This document shows, in pieces, positions 13,592 through 23,641 of a stretch of 64,000 nt of DNA. The translations under genes were made by a program, and so were the position numbers. Position 1 is the first letter of the stretch; each line of letters starts with the position of its first letter. The DNA is from Magallana gigas (taxonomy: Eukaryota), in the NCBI RefSeq assembly GCF_963853765.1, contig NC_088861.1:19282001-19346000 (forward strand), in the 5' to 3' direction. The notes beneath the pieces are model-generated. The model saw nothing but the letters and a program-made list of their open reading frames with translations. It made no database searches and was not told the origin of the DNA.

Positions 13592-16500
13592 CTAACCTGG
13601 GGAGCATTTTTTATTTATTTTTCTAATAAAAGCACATAATTTCCTCAAAGAACAGTGTTTTGTACTTGCCATTATAAATTTGAAACTAATAGCATTTTTT
13701 ATTTTTATATTTATATTTGATAAGCATTGCTTGCGTTCTTGCTGCAACGAGTTACAACTAAGTATGTAGTGAAATTCATCTCCTATTTCACACTTATTAC
13801 AATGAGCACAGAATCTTTCATGTCTGGGAATATTTGCCCAACGTCCACTTTCAATGGGTAGATGGTGATTACATGTTCGAAATCTACAAAATGTAATTGC
13901 ATCTTTTTTTGATAATGTATCAAAATAATGTTCAAATTTTAACTCTTCCTTATAAATTCTATAATTTAGAGCTTTTGGGGATGATTGTAGAATAGATTGC
14001 CAATTTTGTTTGAATTGGTCTACCAACGTGAGTTTTATTTTTGCCTTTAGCCATTGTGAGTTATGTATAGTTTGATTAATCCATATATTAGATAAACCGC
14101 AATTATTTAGAATATGTTTGATATTTTCATACCAAGGGATTTTCCCCCCAATTTCGTGATTCATACAAATTCCTAGATCATATATTAACTTTGCAATTTT
14201 TGTATCTTTTCCGGTAAGTATTCTTGACCAATAAGAAATAATGCGTGTTTTAATTTGAATTTCAAGTGGGTATCGACCAAGTTCACCATATATCATGAAA
14301 TCTGGAGTTGATTGTTTTAAATGGAGTAGAAGTTTACAAAATTTGAGATGAATTCTTTCTATAATTGCAATATTTGAAAAGCCCCAGACTTCACATCCAT
14401 ATAACAGTATAGGTTGGACAATTTTGTCAAATAAATCTAGTTGACACTGTACTGATAGATTATGAAATCTCCCCTTTTTTAACACTTCATATAATGCTTT
14501 TGTAGCTTTTTCGGCTAATTTCTGTATTGCAATTTTAAAAGATCCTGCTCTGCTAAATACTATTCCCAAGTAGTTAAAATCAGTAACAACTTCAATAAAT
14601 TTATCGTTATATTTTATCTGCACGTTTTCTTTCTGCCTACCTTTGCTAAATATTATTATTTTAGATTTATCGATATTCATTTTCAGGTTCCATTTTATGC
14701 AATAAGTATGAAAGCAATCTATCTCTCTTTGCAATTCCTCGGGAGATTCAGCTAACAGTACAGTGTCGTCTGCATATAATATAGCAAATAATTTGAAAAA
14801 TATATCTAACTTATTTTCTAACATGTCAGTAATAGTTGGTAAACCTTGTACATTAGACTCATTTAAAAAGTCATGCAAATCATTAAGGTACATAGAGAAT
14901 AAGAAGGCTGACATATTTTCACCTTGCCTCACTCCGTTTTCACAATGAAAAAAAGTAGAGGTTTCATTATTGTAAACAATTCTTGACTTAATATGACTGT
15001 ACATATTGAAAATAATATTAAACATTTTGCCACAAATATTATGGGATAATAGTTTAAACCACAATGCTTTTCGCCATACGTTATCAAACGCTTTTTCGAA
15101 ATCTACAAACATACAATAAAGTTTTTTCTTCTTCATTCTCAAAAGTTCGAGTAGAATATGCAATGTAAAAATATTATCAATGGTTGAATATTCTTTTCTA
15201 AAACCGGTTTGGTTTTCATGTAATACGTTAAATTCATCTGAAAATGTATTCAGTCGTTCGTTAAGAATGGAGGTAAAAAGTTTTCCAATACAGCTTAGTA
15301 TAGTGATTGGTCTGTAGTTTTGTGGGTTGGTTTTAACTCCCTTGTTTTTGTATATTGGTATAATATTTCCCTCCAACCAAATAGAGGGAATCTTACCAGA
15401 CGAAAAAACTAAATTGAACAACTTTTCATAAACTGGCAACATTAACTGCTGTGTTGCTTTAATATATTCGTTTCTTATCCCATCTTCCCCACTGGCTTTA
15501 TTATTTTTTAGATTCTTAATTGCTTTTTTTATTTCATCTTGGGTAATGTAATTATTTAGATCGTGATTATAATCTTCATACTGTAAATTAGCAATTTCAT
15601 TATCAACCATGTGATTATTTTCATCGCTTATTTCGGGAGACCTGTTTAAGTCTCTGAAATACTGATAAAGATCATCAATACCGATTGCCGATTGATTTTG
15701 GCAATTTTTATTTTTGTTATTCTTATTTATTACTTTCCAATATTCTTTAGGATTTTTGTTTTTGATATCTTTCAAATGTTTACTAATTTTGTTTCTGTAC
15801 TTCAGCTGCTCTTTATCAATAATTTTTTTGTAGTTTTTTTCATGTTCTTTATATTTTTTATGCGCATTTACTGTACGTTTTCTATAATAATAAACTTTGC
15901 TATTACGATATTTTGTACGAGCTTTTTGGCATGCTTTTGTAAACCAAGGTTTTGAATTGGTATGTGTTTTTGAGTTTTGATTTTTTCCACCAATAACACC
16001 TGAGCCTATGGCAATTTTAGCAGCATCTATATATATATTATTAAGGATTTCGACAATATCATTAATAACAACATCCGTGGTATTTTCAACACAACTGTTA
16101 TCTAACAATAATAAAAGTTTGTTAAGATGTTCGGTATCAATAGATTGTACATATAAGTTTTCTTTAGTAGGATCCCATGGTTTGATTTTTTCTAAACAAT
16201 CAACCTTCAATTGAGACACAGCTGCATTTGTATTTCGCTGTAGATTTAAATACAATAAAATTGGTGTATGACAATCAGAAAAAAGTTTGCTTTGTTCAAG
16301 AACTCTCATATTCGACACATATTTATAAGTAGAATAATCACAGAGGAAGTAATCAACAGTGCTCGAACCTTTACATGTTAGCTTCCCTGATAAATTATCA
16401 CCAATGCGCCCATTTACAATTAGCATCTTGTTTGCTTTACACATTTCTAGTAGCATTTTACCATATGCATTTTGGTGTTTGTCTTCGTTGTTTCTTTCAG

Positions 16501-17074
16501 TTTTATTGCTTAAAAATGTCAGGTCATCTTCCATGTTATCAAAAATTTCATTAAATTGGTCATTTTTTGCATTTTCAATATCAAAAAATTCTGAACTTGT
16601 TCCAGTTCGAGCATTGAAATCACCTGTTAATATTACATGTTTATCATCAAAGCACAATTCTTGCATTTCTAATTCTATCATATTCAATGAATCTCTATTA
16701 CTGTATTTTGAATTTTCTGGAGGTAAATATACAATGCCTATTAATAAATTCTTTTCATTATTAGTAAGTTGTTTCGAAATTTCAAACCATAATACAGCTT
16801 TCGATTCCGTTTCATGTATGTTAATAAATTCGCTCAATTCTTGCTTATATGCTAGTATAATACCTCCAGAATTTACTCTACCATATTTGACTCTGTTTTT
16901 CATTTTTATTTCGTACCCATCAATTTCTATAACATCTAAATCGTCAGTTTTTGTCTCTTGTAAACATACGATATCTTGCTCTTTGACAAGTTCTTGGAAT
17001 TCTGAGTAATTCAGTTTTTTCTTTACGCCGCAACAATTTAATGACAGAATTTTAAGGTCACAATAAGTACGCAC
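13592..17074 (-). CDS. LINE ORF2p: AP endonuclease + reverse transcriptase (~1160 aa, no ATG at the start)
   Basis: APE motifs LNCCG, LQET, VYLPP, GDFNA, TVDY and SDCH. RT motifs NYRPITILS, NQTGFR, FVDFEKAFDNV, GVRQG and YADD. C-terminal CAHC...DEFHYILSC. Confidence 0.95.
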   Translation of the reverse strand: MRTYCDLKILSLNCCGVKKKLNYSEFQELVKEQDIVCLQETKTDDLDVIEIDGYEIKMKNRVKYGRVNSGGIILAYKQELSEFINIHETESKAVLWFEISKQLTNNEKNLLIGIVYLPPENSKYSNRDSLNMIELEMQELCFDDKHVILTGDFNARTGTSSEFFDIENAKNDQFNEIFDNMEDDLTFLSNKTERNNEDKHQNAYGKMLLEMCKANKMLIVNGRIGDNLSGKLTCKGSSTVDYFLCDYSTYKYVSNMRVLEQSKLFSDCHTPILLYLNLQRNTNAAVSQLKVDCLEKIKPWDPTKENLYVQSIDTEHLNKLLLLLDNSCVENTTDVVINDIVEILNNIYIDAAKIAIGSGVIGGKNQNSKTHTNSKPWFTKACQKARTKYRNSKVYYYRKRTVNAHKKYKEHEKNYKKIIDKEQLKYRNKISKHLKDIKNKNPKEYWKVINKNNKNKNCQNQSAIGIDDLYQYFRDLNRSPEISDENNHMVDNEIANLQYEDYNHDLNNYITQDEIKKAIKNLKNNKASGEDGIRNEYIKATQQLMLPVYEKLFNLVFSSGKIPSIWLEGNIIPIYKNKGVKTNPQNYRPITILSCIGKLFTSILNERLNTFSDEFNVLHENQTGFRKEYSTIDNIFTLHILLELLRMKKKKLYCMFVDFEKAFDNVWRKALWFKLLSHNICGKMFNIIFNMYSHIKSRIVYNNETSTFFHCENGVRQGENMSAFLFSMYLNDLHDFLNESNVQGLPTITDMLENKLDIFFKLFAILYADDTVLLAESPEELQREIDCFHTYCIKWNLKMNIDKSKIIIFSKGRQKENVQIKYNDKFIEVVTDFNYLGIVFSRAGSFKIAIQKLAEKATKALYEVLKKGRFHNLSVQCQLDLFDKIVQPILLYGCEVWGFSNIAIIERIHLKFCKLLLHLKQSTPDFMIYGELGRYPLEIQIKTRIISYWSRILTGKDTKIAKLIYDLGICMNHEIGGKIPWYENIKHILNNCGLSNIWINQTIHNSQWLKAKIKLTLVDQFKQNWQSILQSSPKALNYRIYKEELKFEHYFDTLSKKDAITFCRFRTCNHHLPIESGRWANIPRHERFCAHCNKCEIGDEFHYILSCNSLQQERKQCLSNINIKIKNAISFKFIMASTKHCSLRKLCAFIRKINKKCSPG

Positions 17075-17128
17075 GCACTGAGGTTCATTGATTGGTTTTG
17101 TATTTTTAGAACACTCCCCAACGAGTCC

Positions 17129-18145
17129 CTATCGCGTTTCCTGTGACGAGCTGATTCGACGCCTTTTGTTAGACACGCTCCGATGTCGGTTTGGTGTTGG
17201 TCTGTCACGCCTGGGTGGGTTACTGTACTCCTCCTCAGTTTCCGGGTTGTAGGGTTGACCATTAATGTAGAGAATATCTCTAACTAACTTCACATGATCT
17301 CCTTTCTGCTTATGTTCTTTCATGATCGGATAGAGGCTTTTCCTTGCTTGTTCTATCTCTTCTGGGAATTGTTGGTTTATTTGGAATGGCTTTCCTTTCA
17401 GTTTTTTGGCGCTTTTGAGCACTTGATCCAAATCGCACTGATATATAAATTTCGCAACGATTGGTCGAGCTCTTTTCTTGTTTTTCTTTCCAAATCTATG
17501 CACGCTGGTAAATTCAACTTGGTGATCAATATCAAGGTTTCTGGCCATGAAGTCACGGAGAACTTCCTCGGTGTTTTCATGATCATTCTCATAGATACCT
17601 GAGAAAATCAGGTTGTATTTCATAGATCTACACCTTAAATCAGTGATCTGGTCTGAGAGCTCTTCATTTTCCTCTATTAGCTTTTTAATTTCAGTCTCTC
17701 TAAGGGATGTGCATCGCTCGAATTTGGATTCAATATCACCGAGTTTATTTCTGAGATCTTGAGTTTTTTCTTCCATGTCCGCCACCTGCTCTTTTACGCC
17801 ATCAAACACATTACTCATGCCATTTAAATGCTCATGGAATTCTCCACATGTTTTATTGACCGCGCTCATCTCATTTTCAATGGTGTTTACTCTGTTTGTG
17901 ATGCTTACCATTTGTTCACATAATTTGTCGACTTTTTGTAGCGCATTATCAATTGTTTTATTTTTGGCATCAATTGTTGCACTCATTTCATTGAGACGTT
18001 CATTGATAGTTTTCCCCATATTTTTCATCAGTTCATACAACTTTTCCATGTTTATCTCACTTTCTCTTTCTTGTTCTTCTTCGCCCCCATATAAAACAGT
18101 TCTACTTTCGCCTAGTAAACTCACAGTTTGTGTTTCGGATGACAT
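17129..18145 (-). CDS. LINE ORF1p (338 aa from the first ATG): coiled coil followed by an L1-ORF1/Transposase_22-like RRM and CTD
   Basis: Heptad-rich N-half, then motifs RCRSMKYNLIFSGI, VHRFG, RPIVAKF, INQQFPEEI and LVRDILYING. The ORF-track start at 18154 is GTG; the first ATG is at 18145. Confidence 0.88.
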   Translation of the reverse strand: MSSETQTVSLLGESRTVLYGGEEEQERESEINMEKLYELMKNMGKTINERLNEMSATIDAKNKTIDNALQKVDKLCEQMVSITNRVNTIENEMSAVNKTCGEFHEHLNGMSNVFDGVKEQVADMEEKTQDLRNKLGDIESKFERCTSLRETEIKKLIEENEELSDQITDLRCRSMKYNLIFSGIYENDHENTEEVLRDFMARNLDIDHQVEFTSVHRFGKKNKKRARPIVAKFIYQCDLDQVLKSAKKLKGKPFQINQQFPEEIEQARKSLYPIMKEHKQKGDHVKLVRDILYINGQPYNPETEEEYSNPPRRDRPTPNRHRSVSNKRRRISSSQETR

Positions 18146-19340
18146 TTTTTCCACTATAGTATAATTCGTATGTGTTTATGTTTGTTTACGTTTATCACTT
18201 GCTTAGACTAAAAATAGCTACACCTGAAGACACACCTGTAGAACCGGTTTATCCGAGCCTTTCGAACACCCACAACTTTGAGATGTTAATATTTTGCTTT
18301 AATTGTATTACCTTTAAAAACAACTGCAAAACAACTGTTCTACTACCGATTCTACACTTAGGAGTACCTTTTTTCCTCTGTTCTTAGATCCGAATTTAAC
18401 ATATAAGGCGTTTTTTCTCTCTTGTTTTGTTGACCATCTCTCCACTTTCACGCATGCGCATACACATGTAACATAATACATGTATCAATTAAGCAGTGCC
18501 TTTAGTGTAGTTTTTCCACTGCGCATGTGCGGGGGTGTTAAGGATTCATATGGGCGATTTAGCGTGTTATTATGACTGTTATATTCATAATCGTGAGATT
18601 GAATAAGTGTTTTGAATCAGATGAAAAAAGTAGTATTATCCTTTAAAAACACTTATCATTAAACGATTAGTTACTATGACTAATTAATTTTTTCTATATA
18701 AAAGGCAGCATTATGGTACAAACCAAAAGGTCTGGATAATTCAGAATAATCGAACATTGCTGAGGATCGGATATCGTTAAATCTATGCTAGATTTTGTGG
18801 GATTATCTTGTCTTTTAAACATTACCGCTTTATATTTCCCATTCGAAAAAAAGAGAAGAAAAATATAATTTTTTTAATAATTTTTATTAAATTATAAAAA
18901 TTGCGTAACTTCGAATTCTGACGTCATAAAGTGCCAGTAAGTGCAAACAATTTGAATACATAGGTAAAAAAAATACATCGTCTATCAACTCTTCTAAAAT
19001 ATTACATAACAATTTAATTTACCTGAAACACTTTAAAAAATGGCGAATTATGGGGGCCAAATATGACCGATATCATACATAGTTCATTGTCGATTCATCA
19101 TGAAATAACAGGATTCATCTTTTTGTCATCAATGAAGAGAGCATGAATCTATGCTCTTGTTTCGTTTCTTTCCAAACAACAACTCTATAGAAAACCACAT
19201 GTCTACAGACAAATAGACTGCCACACGCATTAACTTTATTATTAAGATTAATACACAAAGTCTAGATTGTCATAATTTGTGCTTTCGTTTTTTGATAATT
19301 TAAGTTAAAAAGTTGAGAGAAGTTTAACCAAATAGTTTTT

Positions 19341-21979
19341 TCAATGGTGCAACTGATGAGCCTCTCTCGTTGCTTTGGGAATTCTCCTTAACGACGATTC
19401 GATGTCCTTTTTTATTGTTTCCCCCAATGTCCTGTGGCTGTATCTTTTAATAGGTTGTCCGTCGTGCGACACTAGAAATTTCTCATAATTCCAGCTGACG
19501 TCACTTCTACAAACCGGATGCCAGCCAATCTCGCCAAAGTCTCGCGCGATTTGCCCGTCGTCATCTTGAGGTACTGGTTGTTTTACTTTGAGGTATTCAT
19601 ACACGGGGTGGGTTTGACTGCCATTTATATCGATTTTGTTATATATGGAGAATTTTGGTTCAAATTTCACCCCTGGTCTCACGTTTTGTAAAAATAAAGG
19701 AATTTCGGCGTTACTTAAGGGTTCCAATTTGCCAAATTGGTTGCAGGGAAAAGCCATAACAACGAGTCCTTTGTGTCCATATGACGTCACAAATTCATTC
19801 AACTATTTGGGGAAAAAAGAATATCATATAAATTCATATCTGTAACATTCATATATGCATCATAAATTTTTAATTTATTAAAAAAGTCTTAAAACATATG
19901 AACTTCAAAGATCCTTCCGAAATAAAATTAAGTGTGCCATTTTCTTTTTAATTTTTCAATGGCTTTATATTTATATTGCGGAACTCAGCAATGTTTGGTA
20001 ACTCTTAGATATCCTAACTTTATATTGTATAATATTAAAAATTTGATTTAACGTTAGAAAATGTACATTTACAAAATGTCCATCTTTTAAATAACTATTG
20101 GAAATCTATTTTCAATCAGTTTTGATCCTTGTTATCACAGAAAACAACAGTATAAGATGTGTTTTCGACCCCTCAGGTATAAAAACGGATTTTACATAAA
20201 TGTACTCTCATCGTTTATTTTTTTTATTTGTTGATATCTTAACTTGCTGAAAAGCTTTAACTTTGTCAAAAAGTGTAGTAAAACTTCTGCTGATTTTAAA
20301 ATAACACTATAATTAACACATATATAGATGATGACAATATTTTGAGATGAAAACCTGAATACCGTTAAGCAAGATGAGCTGTATTTAAAAAAAAAATTAA
20401 AATTGGTTTTTCTGCAAGCATGTTCTTTTGTGAAAATTCTACACAATAATGATTAACTTGATTACTTAAACACAGATCAAAAAGGTTTATCACGCAGAAT
20501 CTGTAATATGAACTTTATATAGTACGAAGTAATTATTCAACATGATGGCAAAAGTGTTTAATTTCTTTCTTCGATACAGAGCCTCATTGCTTTTTCCCTA
20601 AAATATTACCGACATTACTTTATAAGCTACAAAATATATTTTATCATTCATTTTAAGAAGTATATTACATTTTTTCTCAATAACAAGAAAACAACAGCCA
20701 TTTTGTTTTAAGTATTGAGAAAATGTTATATATGTTTTATCTTCAATTGTGAAAAGTCTAATATGCTTTGTTTTGATATGTGTAGAATAATCGGATATGG
20801 ATAAAACTAGTTTATAGAGAAACCGTAAATATGGGGTATGTCAAATATTCGTTTAAAGGAAATTAGGAGATTACAGTGTATTTCCCTTTTATTGCTAGTC
20901 GTACATGTATTTGAGTTTATTATTATGAAATTGATATTCTAGTGTTTAAGTAATGTAATAAAATACATTGTTTCCATCCTTTAATTGCCAGTTGCCAGTC
21001 TTGAAAAAGTTTTATTTTCCAATACTATACATAATGATAATGAATTTGATATTTACACTCTAGTGTGTATATCGGGAATCTTTACTTTGCAAAATAGATT
21101 TTTGTATATTTTTAAAAATGTATTATTGAATTTTAGCTTAAACGGACATTCAACCCTACTGACGCTTTATCGCAAGTTTATTTTACAATAATGGAATTGT
21201 TTTACACATAGAAATCAATAACTCTCTTATCAAATTGAAGTTTGTTATGCCGAAATATAGCACCGTTATTATAATTTCCAAGTCAAAGGATGCGAAATAA
21301 TATTTTCTATATCATGATGTTATGTAGATTGTGGTTTCAAATTTTAGATCTAATTTACAATTCCAATTGACTCTTTGGTTAAAATCTCCGGCAATGGCCC
21401 CCCATGAAAATTGAAAACATGTAGATATAGAGTATATTCTAGAAGTATTCAAGGGGTACGCAGTTTTACCTGAGACACCTGTCTTAAACCGCGTTGCAAT
21501 TTGGACCGCGGGGGACGCGCGGAAAATACGGGATCCTCGTTGATGTTACTGTAGATATAGAGTATATTCTAGAATTATTTAAATAAGTTTATCAGGTATA
21601 CTAAAAAAACCTAATTAAATATGCGTACCTGAGTAAGTTCCTGCTTCGTGTTCTTGTCACAAGAAGCCATGTTGACCACAAGAATCACTTTCCCGTGATA
21701 TTTCTCAAAATGGTCCATTTTCCCACTGGGAAGGTACGCCGACAGCTCATAAAACGAGGACACTGATAACACAGGAATCGGTTTGACGGACATATTGTTC
21801 CCGGAAACATTCGTTCCTTTTTTCCTCACGGAAGGCGAACCACTCGGAGATTGTTGGGAGTTGAATTTCCCGGCTCCATTGGTATTCGCAGTTGTATGAG
21901 GTACCTTAAGGGTCGGAGCCTGAAGATTATGCGCTGTAGCGACAGCGGTTGGTTTTTCCATCGGTAATACAGAGGTCAT
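19341..21979 (-). CDS. Glutathione-peroxidase-fold protein (GPx1/2-like, ~270 aa) with a Ser/Thr/Pro-rich N-terminal extension and a non-canonical active site
   Basis: Exon1 21979-21629 (gccATG; donor cag|gtacgc) and exon2 19802-19341 (acceptor tag|ttg), phase 0. Motifs GKVILVVNMAS, AFPCNQFG, VRPG, HPVYEYLK, WHPVCRSDVSWNYEKFLV. The start codon is inferred. Confidence 0.88.
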
Positions 21980-22065
21980 GGCGGAACTGCCAGTAACGAC
22001 AGAGAAACTCGCAGGAGAGGGGAAAGACACAGGGAATACCTCGCACTTCTTTGTGTACTTGTCAT
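21976..22065 (-). other. 29-codon upstream ORF whose TGA overlaps the GPx ATG (ATGA)
   Basis: ATG at 22065 reads MTSTQRSARYSLCLSPLLRVSLSLLAVPP and stops at TGA 21978-21976; the main ATG is 21979-21977. Whether 22065 is transcribed is unknown. Confidence 0.45.
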
Positions 22066-23641
22066 TATAAGAGAGCTAATATCGCGAATGTTGAAAATGG
22101 ACCTACTGTACGTTCTTTAAATCAATATTACGTCCCCGATATCTACGTAGAGGCTCCGAAAGGGTTTATTCAAGTATCAGCAAATACCTGGCTTCTTAAA
22201 TTTTAATTAACGTATTGACAAAACATAGCATTTTTTTTAAAACAGTTGTTAAACTTTCAAGAGATATTTAAATTCTTTCATCAAATTGGTGATAAGTTTT
22301 GAAGTTTAAAAGGAGAGTTTACTTTTTTTTTACCCAACGTGGGCCTTAAAAGTGACGTGCTTGGGATATTTGTAGAGGATATGTTTGCGATTATTGGAGA
22401 GTTAAACATTAGGCCCTAGCTTGTGTGATTACATATATTTGTAGACCATGCTTCGAGAAAGAGAAGCGACTATTGATTTAAGCTGATACAAGAGGGCCGA
22501 ACTCACAACCAAGTGTTCCGAAAAAATTCGTTTTATCTTTCGCAATATTGACCGATAATTTTCAAGTACCCTTTAATTTCTTTGTTACTTTCCACAATCG
22601 ATATCCTTTTATGCTGTATATATTAACTTCTCTAGCCGGAGATTAACACCAGTTATCAATATGTTCTTTTGAAATACATGATAAAGCCCGGTGCTCAAAA
22701 TGATGAAGATTTTTTTTTAAATTGTATCGTGGATTATTAGCGACCGGAGTCGCGAAGAACAATAGCAGGAAGGTTCAATACAAAAGCTACCACTATCTTC
22801 AAAGGCAAAGCTTTCTAGCCATGTCGTTTTCAGAGTTAATCCTTCGGTTTAATTTTTTTACAAGTATTCTTTCCCCCCTTTGATAAAAAAGAGTCGTGAA
22901 AAACAACGGTAGGGAGAATCAATATTTAAGTACCACTATCTTTGAAGTAAGGGGTTTTTTTTTAATCATGTCGTTTACAGAGCTCCTCCGTCGATTTAGA
23001 TTTTAACAAATATCTCTTTCGCCCTTTAATACAATAAAAAGATTTATGAGGAAAAACAATCTTCAATTTTTTTTTTATTTTTAATTTTTCTTCGCCATAT
23101 TGTAAAAAATACGGAACAAAGGAACATTATATTTATAAGTTTAACATTTTTTTGACAATCAACATTTCTTTCCTAGATATCAAATATTATGCCGTCGCTG
23201 TATGAATTTAATTGAAACTAACGTAAAAGAAACCATAATGTAAACAAAAATACATTAATTCTTAAGAAAAAACAATTATGATTTTTATTACTTAGAATCA
23301 AAACATAATGACAAATAAATAAAATGAAATGAAGATTTAGCTTTTCTTAATAAACAAAGAGGCTTACAACTTAGGGCTATTGGTCTCTCATGTATCTCGC
23401 TTCTTTGCCTCATTGTTCCGTTAGGATGTAATGGACGATTTGATATTTCAATACAATGCATTGTTTTTATGTTTTATCTTATTACCGATATTTTGCACGA
23501 GGTTTACAATAGGTCATGATGAAAATCGTAAAGCATCGGATATACGCCACTGTGCCTTTATTAACATTGACTTCCGTAACACATCTTCTCGATCTTCCTT
23601 AAGAAGACCAAGCATTCAATTTATTTAGAGCAAACTACGTT

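Follow-up and report, generated by a model that had tools for sequence, protein, structure and literature searches.

Readthrough in the tombusvirus CIRV (p33/p92-type) requires pairing over ~3.5 kb with the 3' end of the RNA, a pairing proposed, in the parts of the study covered here, to cull truncated genomes and to favour replication in cis (Cimino et al. 2011, PMC3234231). The LINE described below resembles this system in a UAG-GGR stop ahead of the polymerase and in a predicted pairing with the 3' end ~3.5 kb away (PMC3234231; PMC3542737, Table 5, in the sections covered). It differs in that the proximal partner of the virus lies in a large local stem-loop, whereas the LINE arm follows the stop after ~8 nt with no conserved local fold; moreover, the pairing was tested in the virus and is predicted in the LINE, which is an animal retrotransposon. 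MoMLV, with the type III readthrough context 'UAG GGR NGU CAG' (PMC13517186), shares UAG-G, an 8-nt spacer and a first stem from +12 (PMC3542737, PMC13517186, as far as covered), as well as the fusion, predicted in the LINE, of a packaging protein to enzymes. MoMLV uses a compact local pseudoknot, in contrast to the predicted long-range helix of the LINE, in which no protease domain was found by Pfam search.

Among LINEs, SART1 and human L1 likewise have a bicistronic RNA and unconventional ORF2 expression, but according to the sections of PMC5972666 covered they restart after termination (overlapping stop-start, or 63-nt spacer), whereas the window's LINE has no start codon and a fixed frame. 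For non-LTR Group 3 of Paramecium tetraurelia, consensus sequences led Guerin et al. (2017, PMC5405496) to suggest readthrough; its ORF1 and ORF2 also share one frame, but the group is a ciliate clade, and the parts of the paper covered give no signal, structure or test. The RTE-X/Proto2 LINEs of bivalves (Martelossi et al. 2023, PMC10294476) are similar in group (RTE), length (~5 kb) and abundance in bivalves. One library entry of that study, S.grandis_24, labelled RTE-X, has the same in-frame TAG-G junction, and three Proto2-labelled entries open with a motif like the 5' end of the window's element; confusion between Proto2 and RTE-X is noted there. Supplement files 21 and 25 contain no exact match to the element's motifs, and the covered parts of the main text include neither 'readthrough' nor 'read-through' and do not discuss the junction. 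Readthrough in LINEs has thus already been suggested for Paramecium; no description of a readthrough signal or of long-range pairing in LINEs, and none of control by a long-range helix in a LINE lineage, was found in the literature covered, a scope that leaves aside Repbase Reports and most subscription journals.

The window, i.e. the whole 64,000-nucleotide stretch of Magallana gigas DNA analysed here, contains a complete LINE whose endonuclease-reverse transcriptase is probably (probability about 0.78) translated in fusion with ORF1 through programmed readthrough of a stop codon. This reading is favoured because of the shared frame, the missing AUG, the conserved stop context, the family-specific covarying complementarity and the deletions beside the arms. 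The element consists of the following parts:

13411..18458, minus strand: full-length LINE of the RTE group (RTE-X/Proto2-like), ~5.05 kb, ends set by family copies
18146..18458, minus strand: 5' UTR, opening with a short GC/AT palindrome-like motif
17129..18145, minus strand: ORF1, 338 aa (ATG 18145-18143), with coiled coil, probable L1-type RRM/CTD and basic tail
17129..17131, minus strand: single in-frame UAG, predicted readthrough site, context UAG-GGA
17121..17128, minus strand: G-led 8-nt spacer, +4..+11, with no family-specific pairing across the lineage
17110..17121, minus strand: 5' arm of the predicted long-range helix, +11..+22, containing the conserved purine run +13..+17
17057..17128, minus strand: AUG-free linker from stop to endonuclease, 24 codons
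17038..17088, minus strand: non-conserved ATG, out of frame, opening a 16-codon ORF
13592..17128, minus strand: ORF2 frame, 1178 codons, with APE endonuclease, reverse transcriptase and C-terminal CCHC
13597..13608, minus strand: 3' arm of the predicted helix in the last ORF2 codons, 12 bp with +11..+22
13559..13566, minus strand: second complement, 8 bp, to +5..+12, in the window's family only
13411..13591, minus strand: 3' UTR, with AATAAA and a short tail of TGAA repeats at its end

The 5' end is placed at 18458, where a second copy begins, and the 3' end at 13410-13415, where family copies and reads stop; no target-site duplication could be established at these ends. With APE and RT in ORF2, 5'-truncated copies and a repeat tail, the element is an APE-type non-LTR retrotransposon. 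ORF2 matches Pfam PF03372 and PF00078 and is further characterised by motifs. ORF1 matches coiled-coil models alone in Pfam, all below cut-off, and has a weak match (E 0.28) to PDB 2ldy ('ORF1 codes for a 40 kDa product'). All named protein relatives with an animal label are bivalves; in a tree of unnamed RTs the deep branches are weakly supported.

The preliminary description placed ORF1 and ORF2 in one frame with a single UAG between them, and this holds: on the minus strand, TAG at 17131-17129, in the UAG-GGA context reported, is followed by 1178 open codons. No in-frame AUG precedes the endonuclease motifs, as had been stated, the first Met being codon 76 after the stop (16903-16901; residue 58 in the earlier count, which began at V), past LN and QET. 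The ATG at 17088 lies, as described, out of frame (+1 frame).

Within the same genome, 40 of 150 endonuclease matches, mostly with long open frames, were combined with the window's element into 41 loci. The junction is intact in 32 of them (30 TAG, 2 TGA), with the stop shortly upstream of the endonuclease; the other nine comprise four broken copies keeping TAG, four 5'-truncated copies and one distant family with a Met before the endonuclease. Outside loci number 126, 41 of which include the endonuclease start, and the layout is present in 21 of these 41. The remainder include AUG-starting elements with ORF1 in another frame (L094, L113, L136, L137) and different LINE types. Many whole LINEs (L158-L174) were observed in GTDB MAG contigs titled Sedimenticola sp.; these MAG contigs are presumably host-animal DNA present as contamination.

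The pattern was tabulated for 44 distinct families (nearest identity at most 77%), all with a single in-frame stop just 5' of the endonuclease (41 TAG, 3 TGA). The upstream in-frame ORF matches the ORF1 profile in 36 of 44 families, 13 of these 36 having served to build the profile. An in-frame ATG before the first catalytic Asn is missing in 38 families and present in six. Linker ATGs are distributed as 4 in frame versus 55 and 17 in the two other frames, and 20 of 43 linkers have no ATG in any frame (counts of 43 families omit L124, with just 17 codons upstream). Linkers of relatives measure 6-303 codons; those of L163 and L172, of 303 and 187 codons, are open from stop to endonuclease. A SART1-type AUG in the ORF2 frame, overlapping or next to the ORF1 stop, was not encountered. 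When started from ORF1, 14 of 40 ORF1 matches show the pattern, including one TAA family, while weak ORF1 matches lack an in-frame ORF2. TAA occupies the junction in L226 and L239 (G000 C1:1.63 Mb and C8:37.76 Mb), followed by the same motif, so that all three stop codons occur with the shared downstream motif.

This motif starts with G at +4 in 40 of 44 families, compared with 315 of 2255 other TAGs, and with a purine at +5 in 42 of 44. The full arrangement stop-G-R-N7-five purines is found in 33 of 43 families, compared with 10 of 2255 other TAGs; definition and counting of the motif used the same sequences, and the relatedness of the families means that the counts overstate independence. 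UAG-GGA agrees with type III sites, in which UAG precedes either G or a purine-rich octanucleotide, and L226 continues after its stop with GGA GGT CAG, the MoMLV type III context. Two distant families (L092, L105) have ORF1 in frame across UGA-CGG, a type II readthrough context (PMC3542737, Table 5, in the part covered).

Short pairings can indeed be drawn close to the stop, as in the hairpin or pseudoknot proposed earlier, but they are not supported as a shared structure; the purine run has a better distant partner. Folding of the 60 nt that follow the stop is no stronger than that of shuffled versions (z +0.29 in the window's element, mean +0.13 over 43 families), nor is there any folding excess over 90 nt (mean z +0.12), and local pairing of the purine run does not exceed that of shuffled tails (0.49 vs 0.52). 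Neither a compact local H-type pseudoknot (60 and 90 nt folds, model without explicit pseudoknots) nor a large tombusvirus-type stem-loop 3' of the stop was found.

The best-scoring partner of +11..+22 (17121-17110) in the whole element is 13608-13597, forming 12 bp with 3 G-U at -18.0 kcal/mol; in a two-strand fold +13..+19 pair with a probability of 0.98-0.99. The arms, i.e. the post-stop bases and the end of ORF2, are ~3.5 kb apart. Pairing between junction and tail was compared in 36 of 40 families, L047, L075, L092 and L166 being omitted for an unusable 3' end. With all 36 tails ranked for each family, its own came out on top in 11 families and among the best three in 20 (permutation p<1e-5), and in 22 of 36 families the tail is the best 300-nt window of its own element (3.2 expected), with 14 in which it is not ranked first; four neighbouring control segments show no bias towards the own tail.

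Thirteen close families share one register and a partner at the homologous place, with 67% paired cells versus 39+/-6% in a structure-blind alignment, and display compensatory G-C/A-U and G-C/C-G exchanges at +10 and +12 to +15. On other branches the partner occupies varying places in the 3' UTR. A wider window, applied after the fact, recovers partners in L042, L061 and perhaps L159. The helix is not universal: L062, L084, L170 and the L164-L169 group yielded no 3' partner. The 3' UTR of L105 contains a perfect 12-bp complement to its arm, which is partly self-complementary. A second, outer helix at +4..+12 was considered and dismissed, as it is strong in the window's family only; family-specific pairing of the first 8-9 nt after the stop reaches p=0.065 across the 36 families, and unpaired bases are expected there because they would lie inside the ribosome. 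Taken as predicted, the covarying long-range helix would be the 3' RNA structure after a spacer of a type III signal, and likewise the tombusvirus arrangement in which a proximal element pairs with the 3' end ~3.5 kb away. Given readthrough, this predicted helix is probably its stimulator.

Eight distinct internal deletions of >300 nt were found among the loci, three of them ending beside both arms: L004 (+2 to 3564), L006 (+56 to 3476) and L236 (-1 to 3552). Those of L004 and L236 take out arms and loop, that of L006 the loop alone, and inspection revealed no splice ends at the borders. L004 and L006 came from a search with the junction as query, a possible source of bias. Such deletions fit template skipping across a closed loop; alternatively, selection for ORF1-only derivatives could place the break at the stop. 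L004/L007 (G000 C3:41.37 Mb) and L236 are derivatives of this kind, in which ORF1, stop included, runs into the 3' UTR. In two families, the best 40 of 597 and of 687 whole-element candidates include no further deletion flanking the helix. A hot spot of 5' truncation at the stop, suggested by hand-picked copies, was discarded, as 2 of 26 near-identical copies begin within 35 nt. In three families 5' truncation points are more numerous within ORF1 than within the initial kilobase of ORF2, possibly biased by the search for long matches.

Under programmed readthrough, most ribosomes would stop at UAG and release ORF1p, and a minority would insert an amino acid there, the G-led context being leaky. 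A helix starting 8-9 nt downstream would then sit at the mRNA entry channel, RNAs lacking an intact 3' end would not carry the signal, and any ribosome that reaches the end of ORF2 would open the helix. A more far-reaching and tentative proposal, which we rate somewhat below an even chance, is that the RT of this lineage is made only from RNA looped 5' to 3': the helix to the ORF2 end or 3' UTR would switch readthrough on, only full-length RNA would yield enzyme, the finishing ribosome would turn the signal off, the fusion would bring ORF2p in cis into the particle formed by ORF1p, and this loop would also allow the RT to skip ORF2 and generate ORF1-only copies.

An unlikely alternative is termination at UAG followed by an AUG-independent restart downstream, which would yield free ORF2 protein, with the helix holding the ribosome. 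Precedents are SART1, in which termination-reinitiation together with a structure downstream is described, and L1, for which termination-reinitiation has been proposed (PMC5972666, in the sections covered). In 14 of 44 families the third codon past the stop is near-cognate, but the other 30, including the window's element, have no such codon there, and the final G of this codon belongs to the pairing purine run. Besides, a restart needs neither the frame of ORF1 nor a leaky +4, and both are kept across linkers of 6-303 codons.

Splicing, in which TAG/G would be an acceptor and the purine run an enhancer, so that a spliced RNA gives ORF2 an AUG, is very improbable. UAG/G does fit the YAG/G consensus of splice acceptors, but TGA and TAA families keep the motif without AG, a CAG version was not seen, and the upstream pyrimidine fraction is 0.45. 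None of 26 near-identical copies in three families begins at the base after the stop. The element is present in RNA runs of several studies, with reads mostly in sense orientation and 3'-biased in one raw-read run, and depth at the junction is ~0-3.5 per run; at this low depth no joint at the stop appears in four raw-read runs or four contig sets. Contigs of two RNA runs span the stop unchanged, again with no joint there, which weakly disfavours splicing and also A-to-I editing, which would convert UAG to a Trp codon in a fraction of the RNA. The latter has a precedent in the amber/W site of hepatitis delta and could draw on the duplex near the stop, but we give it hardly any credence: the predicted helix does not include the stop, two edits would be required in a TAA family, and the bridging contigs, which drop rare variants, show no change at 17130 among the matches listed.

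The possibility raised earlier that this copy is a slippage mutant and the 17088 ATG the true start of ORF2, one extra base past 17088 bringing it into frame, can be dismissed, because a 97-99% identical copy on another contig (L002/L049) has the same junction without indel, an older copy with 81% identity (L003) carries ATA in place of the ATG, the junction is free of indels in contigs of other runs, and the same layout is seen, beyond chance, in other members of the lineage. By comparison of other copies at the junction, which the preliminary description had advised, the in-frame junction is a lineage trait. Fusion by stop readthrough, one of the two options that it had put forward, is as a prediction strongly supported by comparison of junctions across the lineage.

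It is a long-standing question how LINEs produce ORF2 protein while keeping its amount low and tying it to its own RNA. The candidate signal, defined and mutable, consists of the stop, the 8-nt spacer and the 12-bp long-range helix; nature supplies dozens of compensatory variants of it, and relatives with an AUG start can serve as controls, which opens the question to direct testing. If confirmed, it would extend virus-type long-range control of readthrough to an animal retrotransposon. Gene callers truncate the endonuclease of such elements.

In RNA of three runs (X1, X5, X21) the element is joined to other sequence at 17112, 17 nt past the stop, without splice ends; this chimeric RNA, whose other end has no match in G000, probably derives from a transcribed 5'-truncated copy absent from G000. 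In the surroundings of the LINE, a high-copy short repeat (18529-18648; 380 candidates, very high depth) adjoins its 5' end, and glutathione peroxidase exons (PF00255) occupy 19341-22075 on the minus strand, the same strand as the LINE, which starts ~880 nt past the stop of the last of these exons.
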